From Spizellomyces punctatus DAOM BR117 (lineage: Eukaryota): 35,651 nucleotides of DNA. This document shows positions 7,410 to 35,651 of this stretch, piece by piece (positions within the stretch are counted from its first letter, which is position 1; every line of letters begins with the position of its first letter). The notes under the pieces are model-generated. The model saw only the letters and a list, made by a program, of their open reading frames with translations, made no database searches and had not been told where the DNA came from. The position numbers and the translations under genes were made by a program. The DNA lies in assembly GCA_000182565.2 (NCBI GenBank), contig KQ257459.1, one strand, 5' to 3'.

Positions 7410-8930
7410 CTATTCATCAATGGTGGATTGAAAAGAAGCTTTTCGTGTCAATGCACTTGACCCTACTACCAATGCTTGAGAAGGAGGTACCGAAGCCACA
7501 ACACTCCCACGTCGACTTATCCTCTCTTGCTCTTGCCATGCCTCTATAAGCTGTTTACGGAGATTCCTTACTTCTTGTCTGAGTCGCTCACATTCTTCTG
7601 CACCTTCGATAGATCGCAAGCGGGCGTTTTCTTCTCGTAACTCTTCGATTTCCGCTTTCGAGCGTTCTAATTCGCGACGGAGAGTTTTGAGTTCGGCGGC
7701 TAGGGATGCTGGATGGTTCGTTGGTGTCGATGGACGGTAGGGAGAGGACGAAGAAGAGGATACGTAATATTGCTGTACGACCGAGGAAGATAGAGACGAA
7801 ACGATTTCCTCGCCGTCACCTGCAATCACGGTTGGGATCACCTCGTACTCTTTGACCATATTGTCAGATCCAAATGGGTCGAATCCGCTGGCTGCAAACA
7901 GCCGGTCATTGACAACAAAAATGGAGGAAATGGGACCACCGGTATCTGGAGATCGGTACGTTCTCACGAGATGCCCGGTATTGGCATCCCATTCGCGAAC
8001 ACGTTGATCCCATCCTCCTGCAAATACCCTTCCGCCATCGACGAACACAGACAAGAGCCCACATTCGCCCCCGTACGCTCGAATGGCTTCACCAGTCGTG
8101 ACGTCCCACTCGCGCACCGTTCGATCTTCTGACGCAGAAAACAGTCGAGGACCTTGGACAAAGATGCCCGTGACACGATGGGCATGACCTTGATACGTCC
8201 GAGCAGGTGAACATGTTTTTGCACCTTTTGATACAGACGTCGCTGGGCCGGCCTCCCACTCCCGAATCGTTCGATCTTCGCCGGCGGTATACAACTTTTC
8301 CCCCGCGACAAAAACACTCAGAACCGGTGCATTGTGCCCCACGTACGTGCGCACTAGCTTTCCAGTCCCTAAATCCCATTCTCCGACATACGGCGTCTCA
8401 CCTTGTCCGCTCCATCCAACCCACGATGCCGCTGCTCCAGCAGCAACATAGGCTACTCCAGTCAATTTTTGGATGGACGACTGGGCTTGAACCGGTAGTT
8501 CTACTCCTTGTGGTTGTCCCCCACACCCCACAAAACATCGGTCCAAAGTAACAAATAATGCATTCACACAAAGCCCCACCTCAATCTTTTTTAGAAATGC
8601 ACCTGTGACCGTATCCCATTCCCGAATACACCCATCTGCCGAGCCGCTGTAGAGTCTTGGCGGAGTGTGTTGGACAAAGAGGGCGAGGACAGGGGATGTG
8701 TGCCCAGAGTAGGTACGAGTGCAGGCGCATGTCGTTAAGGAAAACTCTTTTATGGTGTGGTCATGACTGGCGGTGAAAAGGCGGGTCCCCTATTTACCAG
8801 AACCGGCGGCCGTTAGTCCTTGTGCCATAAGTGATTCCAAAAAGTTAGAAACCCAAACCTGCACGAATATGGCGTTAATGTGACTGGAATGTCCTTGAAA
8901 GACCCGCACCGGATGCTGCACAGGGTCCAT
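7410..8930 (-). CDS. WD40-repeat protein with C-terminal coiled coil
   Basis: Exon 1 8930-8859 (MDPVQHPVRVFQGHSSHINAIFVQ), GTTTGG..CTAAC..TAG intron 8858-8790, exon 2 8789-7410. Repeated GH..V..lFV....LFsaS.DrTirEWD units are followed by LAAELKTLRRELERSKAEIEELREENARL heptads. An identical alternative exon 1 starts at 9068. Confidence 0.88.
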
Positions 8931-9098
8931 TACGGGCAGATGATGGGAAGAGTCTGGTGGTGCCATAAGTGATTCCAAAAAGTTAGAAACCCAAACCTGC
9001 ACGAATATGGCGTTAATGTGACTGGAATGTCCTTGAAAGACCCGCACCGGATGCTGCACAGGGTCCATTACGGGCAGATGATGGGAAGAGTCTGGTGG
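8823..9098. repeat. Exact 138-bp tandem duplication (8823-8960, 8961-9098)
   Basis: TGCCATAAGTGATTCC...AGTCTGGTGG occurs twice head-to-tail with no differences seen. Confidence 0.97.
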
Positions 9099-20836: not shown

Positions 20837-22907
20837 ATGGCATCGCCTAACAACCATGGGCCCGCGAGCAAAAATCGCTACGACGTAGAAGGAACTGCCC
20901 CATCGAAGACGACTGTGACGGACAAATATGGCCAGGAAATATACTGCGAATATGATATGACGATGAGAAATTGGGAACTAGTTAGAGAGCTACTGAAAGT
21001 TCTCGCTTGGTATGTAGGGTCCGCCGCCGACAGCATGGATATTGACAGTTGACCTTTAGCGTCCTTTACAGGGGTCTGTCGTGCGGTGCATTGGCGAGTG
21101 CGGTCGTCCTATTTTCCGTATTCATTAGCCTGAGGGCCTCGCAGATTGCAGATCCGTACCTTTGGCTTACTGTTATTTCCTACATTGGGTACGCACATTT
21201 TAATGTTTGGCTGATGGGTGGCCCATTTTCATTCTGTGTCTGCAACAGGACCGAGACTTTCTACACGACAGTTATAGTCGCGCTGACTAGTCCGAAAGTA
21301 GCTCTCCGATTACAGCGAAAGACATATGGAGCCGGTATCGTTGTGCTAATACTCGTATGCGTCGCATTGCGACAATGGAGAGCGGACGGCAGCGCATTAA
21401 CGGTATTTGCCGCCATTGCCCCATTTTGCACATGCTTGCTGGTTTATAACTGGCAAGCTAGTGCCAAAGCATCTATGACTGATGACGATGAAGCAATGGG
21501 TGCAAGTCATACTGGGGTGGTACGAGCCGCCGCACAATCAGACGAGATGAAAGCGGGAAACGGACTCGACATGGTGAAAGAGACAACCAATCCTCCGTCA
21601 ACAACCCCAGAGGCCAAGAGTTCACCAGTGCCAACAAGAGTCATCGCAAATATTTTCCGCAACATTGTGATTCCTTGCATACCAACATTTTCAGTGACCT
21701 TTGTATTTTTCGGAGCCCTAACTGCGATAACAATATCCCACAAACTTTTTGTAGCAGCCAAGAAACCGCTTCTTGACACATTGACACTACTCGGTTGGCC
21801 AGTTCTCCTTGTCGGTCTGCGAGCGCTTTCTATGGCATCAATACAGACGGCGGCCACCAAAATTCACGTAAACGATTCCGCGGAGCAGGGACAGGCCAAG
21901 GATATCGTCAGATCGGCCGAAGATGCTGACAAGAAGGTGGACTCTGTTATCGTCACCAGCGGTGGCAAGACCCAATCCCCGCCACCCCTAGACCTAGTAA
22001 CTGGGTTTGTCGTCCCACTGCACACGTCCCTGTTCGCTGTTGCTGTAACTGATGCAGAGCTGTACAATGTCTACACAAGCACAACATGGACGCAGTTTGC
22101 CTTGGGATTATCAGCAGTTGTCGGAATGATGTTCGCTGAAACCATGTTGGGCATCTGGATTGTTGGGAATCCTGCGAATAGAAATAACGCGAGCATATTT
22201 AGCCGCATTTCAGAACGAATAGCGAGAAGAACTCTTCAACCAACTATGACAGAAAATTCAATATACGTGGCCAAACCGTCGCAGTATGCCCTCGCTCGGA
22301 AGTTTGTGATCTTTGGCAGGGTACTGTATAGAGGTCCTGCTAGTTGCCGGTGTATATTCGAACATTATTCTCATTCTTCTTTTACCAGACAGTGGCATCC
22401 GTGACTTCCGCATTCCGAGTTATCTTCCTGCACTACCTGCCAACGTTGCCATCAATAGGTGGAAATATTTGCGATAAAAGCGGGATAATGGGAAGCTATA
22501 CGTATTTCTTATTTCCAATGCCGGATGCCGATGATATGCTTCTGTATCGAGGATGGAATGTAACTGTTAGGTGTGTGCCAGGGCACAATTTTCTTTTTTG
22601 TTCTATGCTACCCGCTAAATGCTCCGACCATTACAGGGTGTTGGTCACATTTGGTTCTCTGACGCTCACCCTGTTTGCCCTTCTGTTGCTCGAGTGCTGC
22701 TATAGCGTCAATCCCTTTCGAGTTCGCCGGTTTGATCCGTGCCAGGGGAGGTGGTTTATTACTTCCTGTTCGGTAATTGTAACTGCGCACCTGACGTTCA
22801 TTGCTCTTGTCATGTTTCTGCACCGGAGAGACTTCCAATTGATGGGGATGGTCGGATATTGTGAGCATGGGGAGTATACGGGGGATATGGCGCACCCTCA
22901 GCTTTGA
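20837..22907 (+). CDS. Uncharacterised multipass membrane protein (multi-exon)
   Basis: Consecutive ORFs with many hydrophobic helices are linked by GT-AG sites (donor 21010, acceptor 21071; donor 22321, acceptor 22389). No family recognised. Confidence 0.65.
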
Positions 22908-24656: not shown

Positions 24657-26138
24657 GTTTCTGCCGAGTATGAATTAATGGGAGGTTCAAAGAGTACAGA
24701 ATTGTTGGTGAAGGATAAGTCAAGCGCTGCCATTTTATATTCCATATCACGCAATGTGTATTTGGAATAGAGAATATTCTAAATAAACATGTGGCATCAA
24801 GTGGCATCCAGTAATTCTTTCTACGTTTCGCCCGCCGAACCGAAATGGGGCAATAATTATTATTCCACGTCAAAAATAGGAACGCAACATCTCGAGAGTG
24901 TTCTGTATTGGAATTTCTTTTTTGGAAAATCCAGTCCATTTGTTGATTTTCTCCCTGCCGAGGATATTCCACATTGGCACTTTTCACACATGCTCACCAA
25001 TAATGTGCCATTTGCAACCTGTTTTTTTCCGGTGCTTTGTTCGCAATCTTCATGTAATCCTGCCCATTGACAAAACACCTGCCAATAACAACGGCGTTAA
25101 CCACTGCCAGAGATACAGGAATACCTTTCGCTTGCAGGCACACATAGGGCATCGAATAAGGATGGGTCCTCCCGCCCAGTCCTCGCCCACATTGAACAGT
25201 GACTAGTCCTTTCATGCTACTGCAGTTAGAAAAGTTCCTCTCAACCCTTTGCCGGGGAATTCATTCTGCGTTTCTATCATCATCCTTTTCTCTCCTTTAC
25301 AACCCTGTTTAATAACCAAGCACACTATACGATTTCCTAAGGTTGTACATTCTTGCATTTAGACATGTTCATTACAACACAGAAATTCTTGTCGCATGTG
25401 AGCTGCATGTGTCATTGCTCCTGTTGTTGTAAAACGGTGCACGGTGTGAAAAGAAGAAAGGGGCCGGTTGCGACAGTCATATCAAAGAAGGTGACGACCG
25501 ATGAATACAAAACGTGCTACCGATCATTGGGACGAATCATTTACCTGCTGTGCTCACACAGCGAGTGGTCGATCTCGTTGAATGGGAAACTTAAAGCACT
25601 AAACGATGGTCTCGCGCAGCTATTCATAGAAAAAGAAGGCGTTTCCTAATCAGGATCAATACAAGCCTAACTTTAACCCATAACTCGGATTGTTCCTTGC
25701 TCTCCAATTCCTCCGCAGACCATATATTGGCAAACAAAGCAGACACCGACGGGAGACAAAAAATAGCGGCTTCACTGGCGGATGAAGTAAAAGCTTGGTC
25801 GATACCTGGGATTCTTTAGCTTGCGCTTGCCTAAATTTAGCAATCTTGCGCCTTTTTCAGTAACCCTACAGCTTAAACAATGTAAGTTTTGAAAACTCGA
25901 GGACGCCACTTAAAGCCGATTTTCTATATCCAAATCCTAAGAATCAGCGTGCTCATCACCAAGCAAAGAGTATCAGGCGGGCAACATCAATAGCAACCCT
26001 CAACCGCAGAGATCAATAGACAAAGCCAACCTTGTTGTACATGATCCATTCTTGAACTATTGTAAAGGGCTCCAGTCTGAATAAAATGGATTGCCCTAGT
26101 GGGCAACCCACGGAGATTCCGCACTGCCAAACGCCACG

Positions 26139-27863
26139 ATGTCTGTGGAGAAAATACGGGCCATTAATGTGCCAAAGCAAGAGACTGTTTTACGTGCGTT
26201 TAAGAGATAGCTTTTGCTCATCAGGATCTTATAATAACTGACCGGTTTGATGTGTAGGGACGGCGGATTTGCCGGATCCTGAAATCAGTGCAAAAGGTTC
26301 AGAAAAGGTCGGCAAGCAGAAATCGGACGAACCAAAAGGTTCCACGAAAGAGATTATTTCCACTCATCTCTTTGCGACGACATTTTCGATCCTCCTATGG
26401 TCTCTTCTATCGCTGATCCCTCTTGGGCCAATATACGACCGGAGCGGTCCACGGGTATCGGGCATAGTTTTCAGCGTCATGAATCTACCCATCAGTATTG
26501 CCATTTCCCTATCAACAGTTTTTTGGATCAGAGAGTTATTCGGCCTTAGCATTCGATGGTGGTCAAAAGATACTTGGTGGCCTGTACTAGGTACGTAACT
26601 CAACCATTCGACTATTCACGTGCGCCGAAATAGCGTACTCACATGTATGATATAGCGTACATGGTTTGGAATTTTATTGTGTACAGCATCTTTGCTCTCA
26701 TCCCGCTGTTTCCCGTGCCTTTTATGCCAGTATATGTATGTAACAAAATCTCGTAATTTTAATGCATCTCCAGCAAGCTAAAATAATGTTTCTTTTCAAT
26801 CCAAAGGGCGGAGGGTTAGCGTACTCTGTGGTTCCCCCTCTGATCACCTATCTTTTCTGTCTACCAACTCATGTGAAGGCACAACCCGACTTTCTCAAAA
26901 AGTTTGCGTCATCTATTATCGTCTCTGGATCGCTCAACGTCTACTGGTTCGTCCTTTTTGGCTTCTACTTTGCATTCATCAATACACCAAACACGACCGG
27001 GCTGCAAATTATGTTGCTTGCCATCATCAAGATATTCACTGTAGTTTTCGGGGGTATCCAGGTCAAATTGGTGCATAGCGTTGCAAGACTTCTGGGGCAT
27101 AAGGAAGGAGAAAATATTGGGGCGCTTGCAAAGCTATTTATCGAAACAGGTGAGCAATGCATTCCCAAACATTCAGACAGCGAGACTTGACATCTGACCA
27201 ACAACATTAGCCTTTGAGACGTACATCTTCCTTGTAATCCCCGACATGCACGATTGGGCCGTCTTTGGATTCTGGCTGGCGCTCGATATTTCCTGTCTCT
27301 TCCTCGAGCTCTTTCACAAATACGAGACCGCTCTCGATATCGTCCTATCCCGCTTCGGACGTCTCAAAATTTCACATCTCGGTTCATCGGAGGACCTCGA
27401 GGAGACCATACGCGTTCGTACCAAACATTATCTTGTGAGCGTTGTCTCAAAAGTTTTCGGAACGTGCGTCTTTTCCACCTTGCTGGCAACATGGTACTAT
27501 GGGCCTAACAAGGAGTGGTATCCCATATTTGCCTCGTTTCCTGAAGCCGTTGTGACGGATGCCATCTTCAAGGCATGGTTGGCATTAGCAGCCATTCTGA
27601 TTCATCTGATGGGAACGCTGGCGGTGTTTAGATACCGAGGTGTTCCTGTCGCAAAGTATGCAAGGCAATTTTTCGGACGATATGCGCCATTATTCGTGGG
27701 CATCTACCTATGTGCTCCTATTTTCCCTTTCACACACATGGTAATCATTTCATCCCAGCATATTCAGCGCGATCATGTTACTGACTATTGCTTCATCTAC
27801 TAGGGAAAGCATTGGTATTGTTTAGAGTACATGTGGGAGGTCGTACATGGAACCCACGGTTAG
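26139..27863 (+). CDS. Uncharacterised multipass membrane protein (multi-exon)
   Basis: Hydrophobic exons at 26258-~26591, ~26656-26735, ~26807-27148, ~27211-27740 and 27804-27863 are separated by short GT-AG introns. Contains LIPLFPVPF. The start codon is uncertain. Confidence 0.7.
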
Positions 27864-28267
27864 GCCTCTTCATGTTATGATTTGCGGTGTCCGTGCAAAT
27901 ACCGCAGATTGCGTTGTATCCCGCAACCGCGCGGTACACGGTTTACAAGCCGCGCAATATACCCAAACTGTGCAGTAACATTTGCAACGATTGAATGAGT
28001 GCATGTTAGATTACACTATAGACATTATGAATAGAGTGGCAATCAATAAAATGACGGCGTTCTGCAAAATGCCATGATGCTCTTAGCATTTGAAATCTAG
28101 AAAGATTTGGGGCGGGTTAGAAGTGTAATGGATTTAAGACAAGTCCCTAGCAGGTCGCATCATAGCCCTGCTGGATGGGATGGTCTCAGAATCCCTTTTT
28201 TGGGTTCCAGTACAGGTCGTGAGGGCGAGAGGCAATTGGGGATTCAGTTAACGTGAACCGAGCAGGA

Positions 28268-28331
28268 TTAGGCTTAGGGTTACAAGTGTGTTCCCATGTG
28301 GGTAAATATTTTGAAGTGTTCAGAATTGAAA
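28268..28331 (+). repeat. Conserved spacer motif copy 1 with upstream degenerate telomere-type repeat TTAGGCTTAGGGTTA
   Basis: TGTTCCCATGTGGGTAAATATTTTGAAGTGTTCAGAATTGAAA (28289-28331) matches copy 2 at 38/43 positions. Confidence 0.85.
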
Positions 28332-28352
28332 TAAAAGGGTTAAAGGTTTATC

Positions 28353-28619
28353 TGTTGGAATTAATTGATTGACTTCACCGAAATTGTCATGGGACAGTAA
28401 CTTGAATAACTAGGCGAGTTATTAACTTATCAACAAGACCAAAATGGTTCTAGAAAGCCCTGAATCTGCGCTGACCAGCTTGTTAAAAACACATTGTTAG
28501 TTAGTTGTCTTATGCTGAGAGGTCAAAGTCAGGTTGTCATCATGTGATCTGTACTATATTTAGGACCCTTTCTGTCTTTCACAACTCTCTTGACGCAAGG
28601 TCCCGCACAGCTTCTAACA
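28353..28619 (+). mobile_element. Solo/truncated Ty1-copia LTR related to the LTR at 34887-35268
   Basis: Starts TGTTGGAATTAATTG. The first 120 nt match the reverse complement of the 35268 LTR at 109/120. It has internal deletions and lacks the last ~60 nt. No target-site duplication (TTATC vs CCAGA). Confidence 0.9.
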
Positions 28620-29743
28620 CCAGAAATCTGCAGGGAGACTGCATGTTTGCTAAAGTCATCCATATCGATGCAAATGACGCCCTGCTCATGCCTCTATAAA
28701 GTCATGCGACGAGCGAGAAGCGGTAGAATCACATTACACGGCTGATCTTGGGAGCATTTTGCAAAGAGAACTGACCTCAGAAATGATATACCCCGTTCGA
28801 CGCAAGTTTCGATGAGATGGAAAACTGATATTTGATTAGAACAAAAGTTGATGACATTCAACTCATTTGAATAGGGCTGATACAAGTCGGAAGCGGAACA
28901 AGAAGTATCAAGAGCTGTAGCAAAAGGTTTGCAAGTCGTCTTCACTATTCCATACAGCGGGCCACGAGGGAGAGGGCGGGCCAGGAATGAACTGACCTGG
29001 TCCAAGTCCCGCGAAAGATATGTTGGCTGGTCAAAGGTGTCCGGGTGGTGTTAAGTATCAATTTTTGTGAAATTTGAGGATATACATCCTGTTCCTAGTG
29101 CATTGCGATGGGATCTCTTATGTTTGCGACCCATGTGCGGCCCTATTAAGGTCCAACAAGACAGAAAGTATGTTGACGGAAATGGCACAATGTGACCGAG
29201 GATACATAATTGCCAACATGGCTCGGCCAAAAGTTCAAAAGTCTAAACAGTCAAGCGCTCTTGCCTGCTGCTACCTCGGAACGCATCCGGAAATCAATGA
29301 AGATGAAGTCGACCCACTAGTAGTTACAGTAAAAGAATGCGAGGAGCATAACCCGAATATTTTGTAGAAAGATGACTTCCTGTATGTACACGCAAGCTTT
29401 GCTGTCCCAGTCTCAAAGTCGACGACTGCGGCCAAAAGCTTATATGTCAATAACTGATCTCCGTCGTCTGATGTGGACTTTAACAGACGTTGTAGCAAGT
29501 GCACCTCCATTGCATTTAGCCAGATACTAATTGACGCTGCAGCAACTCAGCGGACACATAATGGTACAAAGTAAGAAAGCTTTCACGTTACAAGTATACT
29601 TCATATACTACAAATCATGTTGTGATGATCCGTAGCAATTAGAAAACACACATGTGCCAAAACCACTCATCCAAAAACATGCCCTGGAACATGGTCACGT
29701 TCAAGAATGGTCCGCGCGGGAGCGATGTTCATGTGCTTCATTC

Positions 29744-31131
29744 TTACATGTACACCCGTACCAGACCACCCACCGCCACACCTCTCCTGCAAATGGGGCA
29801 CTTTGGCTGACGTCGGATTGCATCTCAGATACAAGCCGTACAAAAGAGATGCCCGCATCGTGTAGTTGAAGCATTGGAACATCGTGTCAAAGTCTCTAAA
29901 CATATGGCACAGCTTGCCGACTCGCCGTTGCGTCGAGTCCTTGATGAGCCCACAACGACAGGCAACACCGCAATACGGCCCGGGTTGCTACGATGGGTTA
30001 CCTCTGTTGTGACCATACCAAAGCCAAGCAACTCCGAAACCCGCTGCAACATGGAACTATGCCGCTCTGGTACATGTTCGAGATCTTTGGTCAATAGTTC
30101 GAAATATCATGTTACAAGCATTCGTGGTGCAAGGGAATGTTGTGATTAGATGCGACATGTGTCTCACTAAAACGGACAATGGTCAGTTCTATCAACTATA
30201 AACCCTTGGTGTGGCCAACCATGTACATACCGGTCAAGGCTCTAAATGAAAGTGCAATTGCAACAGTCGCACGGATGATTATGATCATTCTGCACATGCT
30301 GATGCACGAGAGCTTCTGAGGGCCATATCTCCAGGCAAACCGAACACGGGTGATGATGTACTGCAGATATATGGGCTGTCAACAGCTGCTCTCTCACAAA
30401 GCGATCCGGGGAGTAACTGCATGTAATTTTAGGAACCCTCAATGAAAGGCGCATTGACAAGTTCAATGATGACTGTGACGACTGAGATATGGCACTAACG
30501 GGGGATCACTGTCTTGGCCTATACTATGACGACCCGAGTTCCCTGTCATACGATGCTCTTCAAGTGCCCCGGAGGAGGCAAATCCTCGCCGACATTCTGT
30601 ACACGTCATCAAAAGGGGTTCGGTGTTCGCTGACGTGAAATCGTATCCAACGATTGCATTCTAGAGATGCAACAGCTTTCAACGTGTTTCTGCAGCTTTA
30701 TAGAAGTGGAAAACCCTTGCGAGCAAGATCTGCAACGAAGCTTATGCGCATTTTGTCGATGTGCTCTGAGGGCACCAGCAGACACGAATCGTCGGTGGCA
30801 TTCTTCACAAGTTAGGGTGACCAACGATTGCGATCTGGAGCTGTCACAGCTTTCAACGTGTTTCTACAGCTTTCTAGAGGTAGAAAACCCCATGTGAACA
30901 AAGCTCGCAACGAAGCCTATGCGCGACCCGTATATGGTCTGCAAGAGCAGCAGCGGAGGCAAACTCTTGTGGACATTGTTCACAACACCGAGATGATTGG
31001 GCAACCGGTCCTCCACCAGTGGTTCGATAAAAGGCGTAGAAATGGACTACTGTCTCATGATCTTGTCGGCCCTGATCAGTACGGAAGCGTCGTCGACAAT
31101 GTGTGCAGCCAAATCGCCTTTTGTCAGACAT
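29744..31131 (-). pseudogene. Decayed multi-C2H2 zinc finger + C-terminal C3HC4 RING (RNF4/Slx8-like) gene
   Basis: Fingers CTHC..HETVVH, CEQC..HIRVAH, CEEC..HRQNAH, CTEC..H and CSVC..HVQNDH. RING: CAICLE..TRCGHLFCTACI*DAIRRQPKCPICRR..VRVYM. Frameshifts near 30888 and 30620; in-frame stops near 30865, 30242 and 29825. Confidence 0.85.
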
Positions 31132-31474
31132 ACGGGGCTTGCAAACGATGAAATGCTGTGGGAAGACGCGGCAACGGGGTGAATATGCGTGAGAATCTTT
31201 CGCGCAACCAGTTTCGACAGGACCAATTGGGCCACGTGACTGTGGACATTCAAAGCAAGCTTTACAGCATCTGCATCCCCGTGGTCGTTGTCGGGCCGCA
31301 CAGTGCTCACATTTCAAGCATACCCACCGGTGTTTGGGGCATAGTCCATGTTGGATCCCCGAGGTCTAAATTAGATCCTTACTGGTCTGGATCCACCAGT
31401 GGGCATTATGTTGGCGGTCACAAGTCGCAGATTTCTTTTGCGCCGCTAGCTAGTATGTTCTAATAGTGACTTAG

Positions 31475-31547
31475 AGTGTTCCTACATGGGTACATATTCT
31501 GAAGTGTTCAGAATTGAAAGTGACCTAACCCTAACCCTAACCCATTA
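31475..31547 (+). repeat. Conserved spacer motif copy 2 followed by a CCCTAA tract
   Basis: TGTTCCTACATGGGTACATATTCTGAAGTGTTCAGAATTGAAAGTG, then CCTAACCCTAACCCTAACCC (31524-31543). Confidence 0.88.
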
Positions 31548-31864
31548 AAAACTAGTCGGAGACTGTACTGAGCATTTGAGCAGCATTGCATGATTACTGA
31601 GTTGGCTCCTTTTCTGAGCGGAGGTTGTGCTGGATTTGCAATGCCAGCATCAGCCATTCCCTCGTCCTTGTTAGTGCTTTTAAACACTCGTAAGATTCCA
31701 CTCATTGCAATGCGAAACTCGTATCAGAATGTTGCTCCTACACAAAGATCGCTCCAGGATATCTGGCAATGTCCCGTTCTGTACGTAATGTGAGCCTGAA
31801 ATTGCGTAAGCAGCCCAAGCCAGTTGCAATCGCAAACCCAAACACAGGTTTCATGGGCAGCCAG

Positions 31865-32034
31865 CCAATCAGCGCAGCTGCGCTGATGAATCACGCCAGC
31901 CAACCGCAAAAAAGACGCGCGTGGTAGACCGCACGCCAATCAGAGCGAGGTGCCCGAGCAGAAATGCCTCATTTGTACGCGCCACATCGGTGCGAGACGT
32001 TTCCCCCTCCCGCCTTGACAATACCTTATATAAA
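31865..32034 (+). promoter_or_regulatory. Putative promoter of the reductase: two CCAAT boxes, a 20-bp palindrome and a TATA box
   Basis: CCAAT at 31865 and 31936; ATCAGCGCAGCTGCGCTGAT at 31868-31887; TATATAAA at 32027-32034, ~110 nt before the ATG. Confidence 0.55.
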
Positions 32035-32142
32035 GCATTGGACTTCTTTACCTCCCATCAAGTTGTTGTCCTGCTTTTAGCTGGCCGCACTGATCGGTAA
32101 CAAGCAACTACCGCTGAAAAAGTTCTCCAAATACCTCCCGTT

Positions 32143-34377
32143 ATGGTTCGGCCGGCCTTCGCGCTCGCCCTAGCCCTTGGCTTTGTGACAGCTCTCCTCC
32201 CGGCTGCCGTCTATGGTATGACTGACGGCCGCCCAGGCTATGGTTTTATCGGATATGGCATCAACATGTACCATCCGACATGCGCTTCCGCTTGCCGTGA
32301 CAGCATTAAAGCTCCCCTGAATTGCACCTCCGCGGACATGGGACAAGCCGGCCATTCTCACAACATGAGGATGAAGCGGGACTTGATCACCCTAATGAAG
32401 CGGATGGGAATAATGGGTGATGGCAAGGAGGCACAGCTCCCGTCCGGCGATGGGTGGATGGTCATGAAGCCTACGCCCGCATGCAAAGTTCACAACGACT
32501 TCTACCTTCAGACGCTTGCCTTCTGCATCAGTCAACGATGCGAGGGTATCTCTCTCGATCATATCGAAAAGTTCTGGGCAAATGACGTCGCGGGACGTGC
32601 CCTTGATCAGCCGGCGCCAACAAAAAGCTATACAGAAGCCCATCTGGCTGCGACAAGCTCGACTCGTCAGACCCTCAACAACAAAGTATTCCTCAATTAC
32701 ACCGGCATCGTGACGGACGATACCTATACTCCCAATATCAACGCCCTCACCAGTTTTGAACGGGTTGAAGTCCTGCATTCACGATATGGCCTCATAATCT
32801 TCCTTAGCGGCGCAATCATTCCAATCTTCCTCTCCTTCCTTCGGTTCCTGCCTTGGCCCGCTTCTGTGACAACAAAGTTTCACGCACACGTAATCGACCC
32901 TCCACTGTTTGGCTCAAAGTACAATTCACCTATTCTGCGGGGTCTCGTAATCATGCCAACGCGCGGCCAGGCCCTGTTCATTGCCTACTACTGGATCCTA
33001 AATGTCGTCCTCTCGGCTGTGAACCTCTCGGCCCCGATGCCTGACGCCTGGTTCTCTGACGTTACAGGACAGGTTGTTGCCTACCTCGCCAATCGGGTTG
33101 GCGTGCTTTCGTTTGCCAATCTGCCATTAGTTTTATTGTACGCCGGCCGAAACAACATTCTCCTTTGGTTAACAAACTGGTCGCATGCGACGTTCCTTCT
33201 GATCCATCGTTGGATCGCCTTTATCTGCATGTTGCAGGCCGCTCTCCACTCTGCACTGTACCTCTATGCATACATGAAATTCGATGATAACGATTACGCT
33301 TCGGAAAGCAAGCTCCCGTACTGGTATTGGGGCATCATCGCAACTTTGTCGCTGGTTATCACTATTCCAGCATCTGTACTACCTATCCGACGAAAAGTCT
33401 ACGAGTTATTCCTCTCGAGCCATATTGTGCTGGCGATTCTAGCCTTGGTCGGCTGCTACTTGCACATATATCATCGCTTCAAGCACCAGTGGGGTTACGA
33501 GACGTGGATATACGTGGCCGTCGGGATTTGGGCATTCGACCGCCTCCTTCGTCTCGCTAGGTTGTTTTACATGGGTGGTTTCAAACGCGCGTACGTCACC
33601 GCTATTGATGACGATTATTACCAAGTCGACATTCCTGGCGTTGATGCTTCGGGTCACGTTTACTTTCATTTTCCTACTCTCAGCACCTGGCGCTTTTGGG
33701 AAAGTCATCCTTTTTCGGTTGCTGGATTACGCTGTCCGTCCGTCGATATTCAAGAGATAGCAGTCAGTGGAAAGGATGGATTGACAACACATATTGCCCG
33801 GTCGTTGGCCGAAACGAAAGATACTGGCATCACGGTTTTTGTCAGGAAGCATAGCGGTTTGACGGGTCTACTAGCTGCTCATAGCACGGCGTCTGCGGGT
33901 ATTCCCGTATTTGTGGAGGGATCTTACGGGGTCGGCATGTCCTTTTTGCAAGATCAGGAGGTGCACCCCACGAGAGAATTTCCTAACCTCTTGTGCATCG
34001 CCGGGGGTGTCGGAATTAGTGCCATACTACCAGTCTTGAAGCGTGCCAACGGCATTCCTCCAATCGGTACCAGCAAGCTATATTGGGGGGTTCGCAGTCT
34101 TCCGCTTGTTCATGCCATCGAAGACATGCTCGGAGTGCCGAAGAACGACTCCACGGTCCCAAGACACTGGGGTCAGACCGAGGTTGTGCTATCCGTAGGC
34201 GAGCGATTCAATTTACGGACTGTACTTCAGGAAGAGTTGACGAGCAAGAATGGAGGCACGACCGTTGTAGTATGTGGCCCGGCCGGGATGGCGGACGAGG
34301 TACGGGTACTGGTTGCTGGGTTGTCCAGACATACAGGGTTGCTTGTCCGGTATGTTGAAGAGAGTTTCAATTGGTGA
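32143..34377 (+). CDS. Ferric/cupric-chelate reductase (FRE family), intronless
   Basis: 744-aa ORF: signal peptide, Cys-rich ectodomain, heme-ligand helices (HRWIAFICMLQAALHS; SHIVLAILALVGCYLH), FAD motif HPFSV, EGSYG, NADPH motifs AGGVGI and CGPAGM, terminal EESFNW. Confidence 0.95.
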   Translation: MVRPAFALALALGFVTALLPAAVYGMTDGRPGYGFIGYGINMYHPTCASACRDSIKAPLNCTSADMGQAGHSHNMRMKRDLITLMKRMGIMGDGKEAQLPSGDGWMVMKPTPACKVHNDFYLQTLAFCISQRCEGISLDHIEKFWANDVAGRALDQPAPTKSYTEAHLAATSSTRQTLNNKVFLNYTGIVTDDTYTPNINALTSFERVEVLHSRYGLIIFLSGAIIPIFLSFLRFLPWPASVTTKFHAHVIDPPLFGSKYNSPILRGLVIMPTRGQALFIAYYWILNVVLSAVNLSAPMPDAWFSDVTGQVVAYLANRVGVLSFANLPLVLLYAGRNNILLWLTNWSHATFLLIHRWIAFICMLQAALHSALYLYAYMKFDDNDYASESKLPYWYWGIIATLSLVITIPASVLPIRRKVYELFLSSHIVLAILALVGCYLHIYHRFKHQWGYETWIYVAVGIWAFDRLLRLARLFYMGGFKRAYVTAIDDDYYQVDIPGVDASGHVYFHFPTLSTWRFWESHPFSVAGLRCPSVDIQEIAVSGKDGLTTHIARSLAETKDTGITVFVRKHSGLTGLLAAHSTASAGIPVFVEGSYGVGMSFLQDQEVHPTREFPNLLCIAGGVGISAILPVLKRANGIPPIGTSKLYWGVRSLPLVHAIEDMLGVPKNDSTVPRHWGQTEVVLSVGERFNLRTVLQEELTSKNGGTTVVVCGPAGMADEVRVLVAGLSRHTGLLVRYVEESFNW

Positions 34378-34654
34378 AGACCAGCCAAAAGACGAGATGT
34401 GTGGATTGCACGCTTTCGAGTGTCCGTTATCCAGCTACAGTTAGCTTTTGTTTTGTGCATACATAGTAACATTTACGGTGTTTGATTTCCGTCATCTGCC
34501 TGCTGGTTCGTTTCTGTTTGTTTATATCTGGCGCAACAACGATCCTCGCTTGTATATCATACTCATTTGAGCACATCAAAGTCACATACGTGTCAGCTGA
34601 TGTTTCGAACAGCATCCTATTTATTTACCCCATCACCACCCACAAAGGGTAACA

Positions 34655-34865
34655 TAATGTTAGGGTTAGGGTTGCGGCATGCTCAGAGTCGAGCTCAAAA
34701 ACCTACAAGTTACAAGGGTGTCCCCACCGGGTTGTTTTTTGCAAGTGTTCAGATTTGAAAGTGGTCTTAATTAAAGTTGTTGGGAATGGTCTAAAACACG
34801 GGAATCTGCAATAAAATCGCCAAGGGTTAGGGTTAGGGTTGCGCCATGGTCGTCAAGCTCTAATA
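34655..34865 (+). repeat. Conserved spacer motif copy 3 enclosed by two TTAGGG-containing direct repeats (period 167 bp)
   Basis: GTTAGGGTTAGGGTTGCG(G/C)CATG(C/G)TC at 34659 and 34826. Core GTTACAAGGGTGTCCCCACCGGGTTGTTTTTTGCAAGTGTTCAGATTTGAAAGTG at 34709-34763. Confidence 0.85.
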
Positions 34866-34886
34866 AATTTTTGTACGTGTAGAAAC

Positions 34887-35268
34887 TGTTGGGGAAAGTC
34901 GAGAAATAGGTGTTATCCTAGGACTAGACTGGGTGCACCTGAGAGGTGGATAGCTCGGTTAGAAGCTAGTCCGTCACTGGAGAACGTCTCTGGGGACCTT
35001 GCGTCAAGAGAGCAGCGAAAGAGTTGTATTACAAACAGAGAAAGGCAGGTCCTAAATATGGTACAGGTCACATGATGACAACCTGATTTTGACCTCTAAT
35101 TTTGGGCGCATAAGACAACTAACTAAGAATGTGTTTTGACAAGCTTGTAGCGCGGATTCAGGGCTTTCTACAACCATCTTGGTCTTGTCGATAAGTTAAT
35201 AACTCGCTAAGTTATTCAAGTTACCGTCCCATGGCAACTTCGATGAAATCAATCAATTAATTCCAACA
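34887..35268 (-). mobile_element. 3' LTR (382 bp) of a Ty1/copia retrotransposon
   Basis: Ends TGTTGG...CCAACA. On the minus strand it is directly preceded by the polypurine tract GGGTGAGGGGAAG (35281-35269), downstream of the RNase H ORF. Confidence 0.92.
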
Positions 35269-35304
35269 CTTCCCCTCACCCAAAATTCCCTTTTACTTAA
35301 GATC

Positions 35305-35651
35305 TCATGTTTGGGCATCGTCCAGTTCTTTAATGCCAAGTTCAGCACAACACTGGGTGAATCTCGGTGCAGGGATGGCCTTGGTAAGAACATCTGCAGT
35401 CATCTGTTGAGTGGGGCATCTTCTAACTGAAATCTCACCACTCTGGATGTGTTCCCTGAGGAAATGATAGTGTATATCGATATGCTTCGTCCGCTGTGAG
35501 ATCAGGGTGTACTTCGCCAGTTCCATCGTGCCGTTGTTATCCATTTTGAGCACAGTTGGGTTTTGTTGAACTTCCAAAAACCCAAGCTTTGCCAAGAGGT
35601 TTCTCATCCAAATAACCTCTCGTGCACAATCTGATGCCGCAATATACTCTG
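35305..35651 (-). CDS. Ty1/copia pol, C-terminal RNase H domain (partial)
   Basis: EYIAASDCAREVIWMRNLL..DN..RTKHIDIHYHFLRE..QMTADVLTKA, which are canonical copia RNase H motifs. Confidence 0.96.
   Translation of the reverse strand, partial: EYIAASDCAREVIWMRNLLAKLGFLEVQQNPTVLKMDNNGTMELAKYTLISQRTKHIDIHYHFLREHIQSGEISVRRCPTQQMTADVLTKAIPAPRFTQCCAELGIKELDDAQT

Follow-up and report, generated by a model that had tools for sequence, protein, structure and literature searches.

A multi-copy repeat with telomere tracts on both sides of a Sordariomycete-type ferric reductase gene in the chytrid Spizellomyces punctatus

How does an expressed reductase gene of Sordariomycete type come to lie in a soil chytrid, between short tracts of telomere repeat and copies of a short repeat? 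We examined this question in a stretch of 35,651 nucleotides from Spizellomyces punctatus DAOM BR117 (GenBank assembly GCA_000182565.2, contig KQ257459.1, 1,011,657 bp long; hereafter the window), in the right part of which (28268 to 34865) an 18-mer occurs three times, with TTAGGG or CCCTAA tracts close by. An initial annotation, made from the letters alone, had read this as an array of gene modules of ~3.2 kb, possibly the cassettes of a recombinase. Our own reading, which we hold with about even confidence, is that the copies are internalised relics of a repeat once inserted in telomeres, at a former chromosome end that grew by capture of DNA including a foreign gene; the locus looks like the scar of such an end, and not like a bacterial-style cassette system. 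The repeat itself is short, multi-copy and non-coding and would most likely be a non-autonomous or truncated telomere-targeted retroelement, a passive telomere-adjacent repeat being the weaker variant.

Gene transfer between distant eukaryotes is mostly inferred from trees, and its junctions are seldom preserved; here the expressed gene still lies between short telomere tracts (seeds) and repeat relics. If our reading is true, the locus would be a natural example of the telomere-capping route proposed from transgene experiments, and it suggests a telomere-associated repeat family, so far undescribed, in a chytrid that is genetically tractable. Should the repeat be passive and subtelomeric, all that is left is one case of gene transfer in a repeat-rich island.

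Repeat units and telomere tracts

We searched the window for the 18-mer and found it on the plus strand without mismatch at 28314, 31502 and 34743, and these three sites remained the only matches when up to 3 mismatches were allowed (mean of 0.12 matches in shuffled sequences, with 3 reached in 0 of 100 shuffles). Around the 18-mer, an ungapped 47-bp repeat covers 28285-28331, 31473-31519 and 34714-34760 (spacings of 3188 and 3241 bp), with 87% (copy 2) and 66% (copy 3) identity to copy 1. A profile of the three cores run on both strands of the 35.6-kb window retrieved no further copy of similar score, and the window holds no inverted copy of the core. The initial annotation had thus correctly described three co-oriented 18-mers within an element of ~45-55 bp, with no copy in the first 28 kb. 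It had also allowed that the regular spacing may be due to chance. A middle copy placed randomly would give such even spacing with a probability of ~0.8%, but this is a post-hoc test, and the first interval shrinks to about 2915 bp without its long terminal repeat (LTR) piece, matching the ~2.9 kb calculated earlier. The units, the tracts and the gene between them are arranged as follows.

28268..28282, plus strand: degenerate telomere tract (a variant hexamer, TTAGGG, TTA) abutting copy 1; GTTA fits both tract and repeat
28283..28331, plus strand: copy 1 of the core (47-bp match at 28285-28331)
28336..28350, plus strand: to the right of copy 1, a telomere-like tract that starts AGGGTT and is probably decayed
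31473..31526, plus strand: copy 2 of the core, flanked by the 5' ends of the two divergent cargo genes; the family match stops at 31526
31524..31543, minus strand: perfect telomere tract of ~3.3 units (CCCTAA on the plus strand), with a 3-bp overlap with the end of copy 2
32143..34377, plus strand: ferric-chelate reductase gene, intronless, 744 amino acids, Sordariomycete type
34659..34673, plus strand: perfect telomere tract of 2.5 units (TTAGGG on the plus strand), ending GGGTT
34674..34822, plus strand: copy 3, the longest unit (149 bp), made of segment A, the core at 34714-34760 and a 62-bp right extension
34823..34840, plus strand: perfect telomere tract of 3 units, starting AGGG and ending GGGTT
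34841..34886, plus strand: copy 4, made of segment A and a decayed, internally deleted core, cut off by an LTR

The fourth unit (34841-34886) was recognised by its start, which repeats that of unit 3: compared with 34674-34708, 0 of 2000 background stretches scored as high, and compared with the core, 8 of 2000 equalled its score, in keeping with a decayed core. Segment A (~35 bp) is common to copies 3 and 4, and no match to it above background was found upstream of copies 1 and 2. The copies are uneven in length (49, 54, 149 and 46 bp) and ragged at their right ends, copy 1 departing from the repeat family exactly where the 18-mer ends, copy 2 seven bases farther on. The right extension of copy 3 found no better match than background after the tract of copy 2 or at the start of the LTR; it possibly resumes beyond the solo LTR, where 27 of 2000 background stretches score equally. 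Within segment A, a 6-bp palindrome (34674-34682 and 34841-34849) has different outer bases on both sides in copies 3 and 4 and is palindromic in each.

Perfect telomere runs of at least 12 nt occur in the whole window only at 31524-31543 (CCCTAA), 34659-34673 and 34823-34840 (both TTAGGG), each at most 70 bp from a copy, and no such runs appeared in Markov simulations (n=60). The link to telomere repeats proposed earlier therefore goes beyond chance, and the claim that every copy has tracts nearby applies with perfect tracts to copies 2 and 3 and with degenerate tracts only to copy 1, which has a single perfect hexamer to its left and a decayed tract to its right. Copies 1, 3 and 4 adjoin tracts of TTAGGG sense and copy 2 adjoins an inverted tract. 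Unit 3 is flanked by a tract ending GGGTT on its left and a tract starting AGGGTT on its right, as expected for insertion at a single point of the telomere repeat, and the decayed tracts of copy 1 follow the same two registers. Units 3 and 4 stand head to tail with a short telomere tract between them, and tract and segment A together were duplicated as a single block (34659-34699 and 34826-34863). The segment with the reductase has CCCTAA on its left and TTAGGG on its right, the orientation of a capped linear molecule.

We then used reads of 38-60 nt from 4 of 22 runs, one of RNA and three of chromatin immunoprecipitation (ChIP), all with the same species label; the ChIP targets are not given. 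All 30 of 30 bins were covered in 3 of 3 DNA runs, from which we conclude that the island belongs to the host; this coverage, together with the polyadenylation of the reductase, rules out contamination of the assembly. At copy 1, a letter other than that of the assembly was read at 28287 in 68 of 76 DNA reads and at 28307 in 88 of 107 reads, the depth at 28287 was 20-30 (against ~4 in the bin 27801-28067), and one class of reads diverged after 28327. In the right part of copy 3, through which other copies also run, 20 of 35 DNA reads had another letter at 34799. Of the 40 best-supported among 117 differences, none fell in the deeply covered reductase. Given the raised depth and the differences at copy 1 and their absence from the reductase among those listed, the divergent reads originate from copies elsewhere in the genome, some five or more (a rough number owing to ChIP bias), and the motif belongs to a repeat, at least 110 bp long, that occurs in multiple copies. 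The 18-mer, which had been called conserved, varies among these copies, with another letter at 28318 in 12 of 59 DNA reads and 17 of 19 RNA reads. In one run, 17 reads continue beyond 31526 with letters resembling the extension of copy 3, which indicates that copy 2 breaks off, or is interrupted, at the start of its telomere tract. RNA reads of plus sense at 28286-28318 come from a variant copy elsewhere, probably near the 3' end of a transcript, and a class of reads at 28230-28255 with several differences and small indels, mostly from one run, may represent a diverged repeat left of copy 1.

A multi-copy family with variants would also suit an ordinary dispersed repeat, similar to a miniature inverted-repeat transposable element, a short interspersed nuclear element or an insulator, with built-in TTAGGG runs and perhaps a bound protein, in a transposon-rich island that received the foreign gene independently; such a repeat is what the initial annotation had named as speaking against a cassette array, and the multi-copy part of that description is what the reads reveal. 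The duplication of tract and segment A as one block agrees with it. So does the location of the copies, none of which falls within the chromatin peak of either cargo gene, and so does the presence of both LTRs at most 22 bp from a core, which suits a general insertion hot spot. However, the tracts vary in position relative to the core and occur in both orientations, unlike a fixed built-in run, and we saw no terminal inverted repeats or target-site duplication for the repeat, nor any tRNA or Rfam match (0 matches at E up to 5 in 27500-35651). We consider this explanation unlikely. Promoter and terminator scans were empty.

The core has overlapping TGAA/TTCA dyads with a loose 16-bp periodicity, and the repeat contains a small CCC..GGG dyad. 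Across 8 folds, z-scores ranged from -1.3 to +0.7, no better than shuffles, and a hairpin or ribozyme role for the core was discarded on these grounds. The dyads that had been likened to recombination or protein-binding sites are present, and the hairpins that they could form are weak, with no z-score below -1.3. Dyads and periodicity could also mark a cis-acting site of breakage and telomere healing, bound or cut by a protein of the host or of an element, at which telomerase or an LTR patches the end and foreign DNA is captured. Copies 1 and 2 both leave the family at or shortly after the 18-mer and are each followed by a patch (an LTR piece and a telomere tract, respectively), and the possible return of the extension past the solo LTR would fit as well. 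Yet the 18-mer varies among family members, the tract positions are not fixed, and the three short-read DNA runs gave no recurring telomere-added ends at the motif among the loose ends listed and no joints. To our knowledge, programmed breakage with telomere addition is not known in fungi, and we regard a breakage site as distinctly unlikely.

Outside the window, the exact 18-mer was found once in viral contigs (L001), in AT-rich DNA where the rest of the element is missing, and was taken as a chance match. Three longer or other motif patterns gave 0 matches in viral contigs, and neither metagenome contigs nor prokaryote genomes contained a 22-base pattern (0 matches each).

The reductase gene and a candidate chromosome end

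The reductase is encoded by one intronless open reading frame (ORF) of 744 amino acids (32143-34377) with ferric-reductase domains in Pfam, and its RNA is piled at the 3' end, with a poly(A) at 34494. We retrieved the best 120 of 577 protein matches, which comprise the reductase itself, 88 proteins with an organism name and 31 without. Among these 120, the top relatives are 54-56% identical, no chytrid occurs among the 88 named proteins, and all named relatives belong to what we take to be filamentous ascomycetes; the cluster at 90% identity has one member. In a quick tree of 45 of the best 120, the reductase shares one side of a split with 100% support in the Shimodaira-Hasegawa-like approximate likelihood ratio test (SH-aLRT) with 13 named and 7 further proteins, the 13 named ones all being, presumably, Sordariomycetes. 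These protein comparisons strongly suggest, short of proof, that the gene was transferred from an unsampled relative of the Sordariomycetes, as chytrid outgroups are absent from the tree, which is rooted at its midpoint only. A trehalase exon in the left part of the window is 99% identical to a protein of Spizellomyces sp. 'palustris' and 84-87% identical to the next four, all from chytrids. The link to acquired DNA that had been proposed earlier holds. In metagenomes, 18 stretches fit a peptide pattern of loci with reductase relatives and 0 were confirmed. In the promoter region, within 31865-31893, a perfect 20-bp palindrome (31868-31887) overlaps a CCAAT box, and a second CCAAT at 31936 is followed by similar bases, possibly a regulatory module from the donor.

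We read the region as a former end grown by repair-mediated capture on the basis of the tract registers, the head-to-tail units, the outward-facing seeds and the parallels with the MoTeR elements of Magnaporthe given below. In the order of events that we propose, a unit embedded in the telomere just past the last native gene would have become copy 1; the end would have broken or eroded, and repair would have added the LTR piece, the segment with the C2H2-RING pseudogene and copy 2. A Sordariomycete fragment with the reductase and its promoter, bearing telomere seeds, would then have joined the eroded copy 2 through the 3-bp overlap, and the far telomere of this fragment would have taken up copies 3 and 4 head to tail. 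Finally, a copia element would have inserted and the chromosome end would have become internal.

Several observations weigh against this reconstruction. No reverse transcriptase or parent element was found in 24701-35651, and copies 1 and 2 lack segment A, which a strictly MoTeR-like polarity would make the constant 3' end. Copies 3 and 4 have homologous left junctions and so give a single observation of the register, which would match by chance in ~1 in 6 cases. Six bases past the tract of copy 2 match the continuation of the family in reads; this tract could consist of telomere repeats inserted within a unit, which would weaken the joining of the fragment to copy 2, and the tract that closes the reductase segment on the right is part of unit 3, not necessarily an independent cap. 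For these two reasons, the capped fragment is the least secure of the proposed steps. Transcript reads from another copy are of plus sense, opposite to MoTeR polarity, and may be read-through from a host gene. There is, besides, a slim chance that the locus belongs to an undescribed telomere-linked gene-capture system of chytrids, in which the repeat would be a docking site where a site-specific enzyme encoded elsewhere joins telomere-capped linear foreign DNA beside the core, so that acquired genes would form arrays at many loci.

Neighbouring features and the search for recombination domains

The C2H2-RING pseudogene, the single reductase and the LTR pair of the initial annotation were all recovered. 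The remaining features of the right part of the window are listed below.

28353..28620, plus strand: truncated solo copia LTR, 21 bp past copy 1, with no target-site duplication seen
28621..29743, no strand assigned: DNA without Pfam or PHROG family in six-frame read-through
29744..31365, minus strand: C2H2 zinc-finger and RING pseudogene, intronless
34887..35268, minus strand: copia 3' LTR (TG...CA), with a purine tract immediately upstream
35305..35651, minus strand: end of copia pol (RNase H region), running past the edge of the window

The C2H2-RING pseudogene has frameshifts, with 6 stops within its last 252 codons. Its 5' part still bears a chromatin peak, and RNA from it is low, with a depth of ~2x near the 3' end. 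An exhaustive search gave 2262 matches at E up to 0.001, the best of which cover zinc-finger or RING stretches only; no close relative was found, the 10 matches examined being plant or unnamed proteins, and there was no match among longer proteins. A 174-bp internal repeat (30647-30924) corresponds to a duplicated zinc-finger pair. The solo LTR aligns with 34993-35268 in reverse orientation at 82% over 278 columns, and the nearest clusters of the copia pol end include 'Copia protein' (score 0.95), with no Pfam or PDB match. Both LTRs of this copia family (28353 and 34887) lie at most 22 bp to the right of a core, in opposite orientations, possibly through targeting of the repeat by copia.

The two cargo genes are divergent, both pointing away from copy 2, with a separate chromatin peak each. 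In two runs the signal is highest over the 5' parts of both genes, in the third over the gene bodies, which would fit promoter and gene-body marks. The sole joint listed in the reads is the intron of the upstream native gene, and no DNA joint, circle or empty site linking copies was found in the three DNA runs, whose reads of 38-51 nt give low power. We looked for recombinase, HUH and reverse transcriptase domains by six-frame read-through of 24701-35651 and found none there, the only domains being zinc-finger, RING and reductase; in the first 24.7 kb, Pfam was run on chosen ORFs (25 of the 146 ORFs in the window were scanned).

If the copies were hybrid sites at which a tyrosine recombinase encoded elsewhere attaches gene modules in tandem, in the manner of Starships or integrons, this would account for the direct orientation, the dyads, one gene per interval and the foreign cargo, and TTAC stands before the core in copies 1 and 3. 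It is missing from copy 2, however; the cargo genes are divergent with their own promoters, the homology is unequal (49-149 bp) around a variable core, no circle or empty-site joint occurs in the reads, and the telomere tracts are left unexplained. Neither 24701-35651 nor the 25 of 146 ORFs sent to Pfam contain a recombinase domain, in agreement with the earlier statement that none is present, and the search of 24701-35651 for a linked recombinase or HUH protein came back empty. With divergent genes under separate peaks, unequal stretches of a longer repeat in place of a fixed core with exchanged arms, a variable 18-mer and no such domain in 24701-35651, the cassette array first proposed is not supported, and we consider recombinase sites very unlikely.

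Helitrons that capture genes are expected to leave co-oriented repeated ends around them, and the copies could accordingly be stacked termini of a rolling-circle element of this type that captured genes by terminator bypass. A small CCC..GGG dyad is present; yet it forms no stable hairpin, no constant CTRR follows it on either strand, no asymmetric inverted-repeat partner was seen, 24701-35651 encodes no Rep/helicase domain, and the telomere tracts again find no explanation. We hold this origin to be highly improbable.

Two further observations concern the left part of the window. An exact tandem duplication of 138 bp (8822-9097, 100% identity) in the start region of a WD40 gene is either recent or an assembly artefact. 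Runs of ORFs with long hydrophobic stretches at 21046-22907 and 26251-27803, without Pfam match in the ORFs scanned, resemble each other in style and may be a lineage-specific family of membrane proteins.

Comparison with known systems

Structures of this kind are known; what is new, as far as our searches reach, is the host, the repeat family and a cargo from another phylum lying between telomere seeds. The letters of the motif were in no paper found, subscription papers and repeat databases lying outside the search, which also returned no paper on Spizellomyces with Penelope and telomere or on telomere-targeted retrotransposons in chytrids.

Integron cassettes are co-oriented and mostly promoterless, with a stable single-strand hairpin at each site; here, the two genes diverge, both have a chromatin peak and 3' RNA of their own, and no stable hairpin was found. 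With 0 Rfam matches in 27500-35651, there is likewise no sign of a structured RNA or ribozyme repeat (retrozyme, or the pseudo-LTR, pLTR, of Penelope). The locus is like the Starship Hephaestus, whose target is given as TTAC (PMC10104507), in its cargo genes, its direct repeats including TTAC and gene transfer between fungi. It is unlike Starships in having no DUF3435 tyrosine recombinase as first gene, the captain (Pfam, six frames of 24701-35651), and no short direct repeat with adjacent terminal inverted repeats, and in its 3-kb intervals, its 3-4 long direct copies and its telomere tracts.

Helitron ends are described as a 3' hairpin followed by CTRR, or as asymmetric inverted repeats with hairpins at both ends (Helitron1 and Helitron2; PMC3627910). 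Our locus shares with them co-oriented repeated ends, a small dyad and captured genes, and differs in having no stable hairpin, CTRR end or asymmetric inverted-repeat pair, and no Rep/helicase in 24701-35651. In the same host genus, the Fanzor elements SPu-1/2/3 and the ghost Spu-1 of Spizellomyces punctatus are reported with terminal inverted repeats of 25-33 bp (PMC3627910, PMC10432273); they too are short multi-copy repeats, and unlike them our repeat has no such inverted repeats. Four 13-mers of the core were not found in 12 of the 14 supplementary files of PMC3627910, in which line breaks could hide a 13-mer.

For a chytrid, the terminal repeat has been reported as TTAGGG (10.1101/2021.11.03.467166). 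Foreign DNA is described as gaining telomeres in Histoplasma and Acanthamoeba, with a proposed role in gene transfer (PMC11995660, which cites Woods and Goldman 1992). As in the telomere-capped DNA of Histoplasma capsulatum and Acanthamoeba castellanii, foreign DNA here lies between outward-facing repeats and ends up in a chromosome. Unlike those laboratory transgenes, the present case would be natural, and its seeds have only 2.5-3.3 units, each with another possible origin.

The closest parallels are with the MoTeR elements of Magnaporthe (Pyricularia) oryzae. Their relics are short pieces with 1-3 telomere repeats at internal sites, with the junction register listed in Table 2 of PMC8381367; arrays are head-to-tail units with short tracts between them, internalisation is attributed to end repair, and three tandem relics interspersed with non-MoTeR DNA, relics bordered by tracts on both sides and LTR elements inside MoTeRs are also described (10.1101/845669). 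Our repeat likewise consists of short pieces joined to short internal tracts in the same junction register without target-site duplication, and of head-to-tail units with short TTAGGG tracts, tandem relics with unrelated DNA between them and LTRs nearby, the single register resting on few independent junctions. It differs in showing no sequence likeness to MoTeRs and no parent encoding a reverse transcriptase, in its chytrid host and in having, within the interspersed DNA, an expressed gene of another fungal phylum. In 2 of 4 copies the tract-adjacent segment is lacking, segment A being present in copies 3 and 4 only, so that a constant 3' terminus does not occur in each relic. As this missing segment breaks the 3'-end rule of MoTeRs, we do not place the repeat in the MoTeR family, although it appears to work like a member of it.

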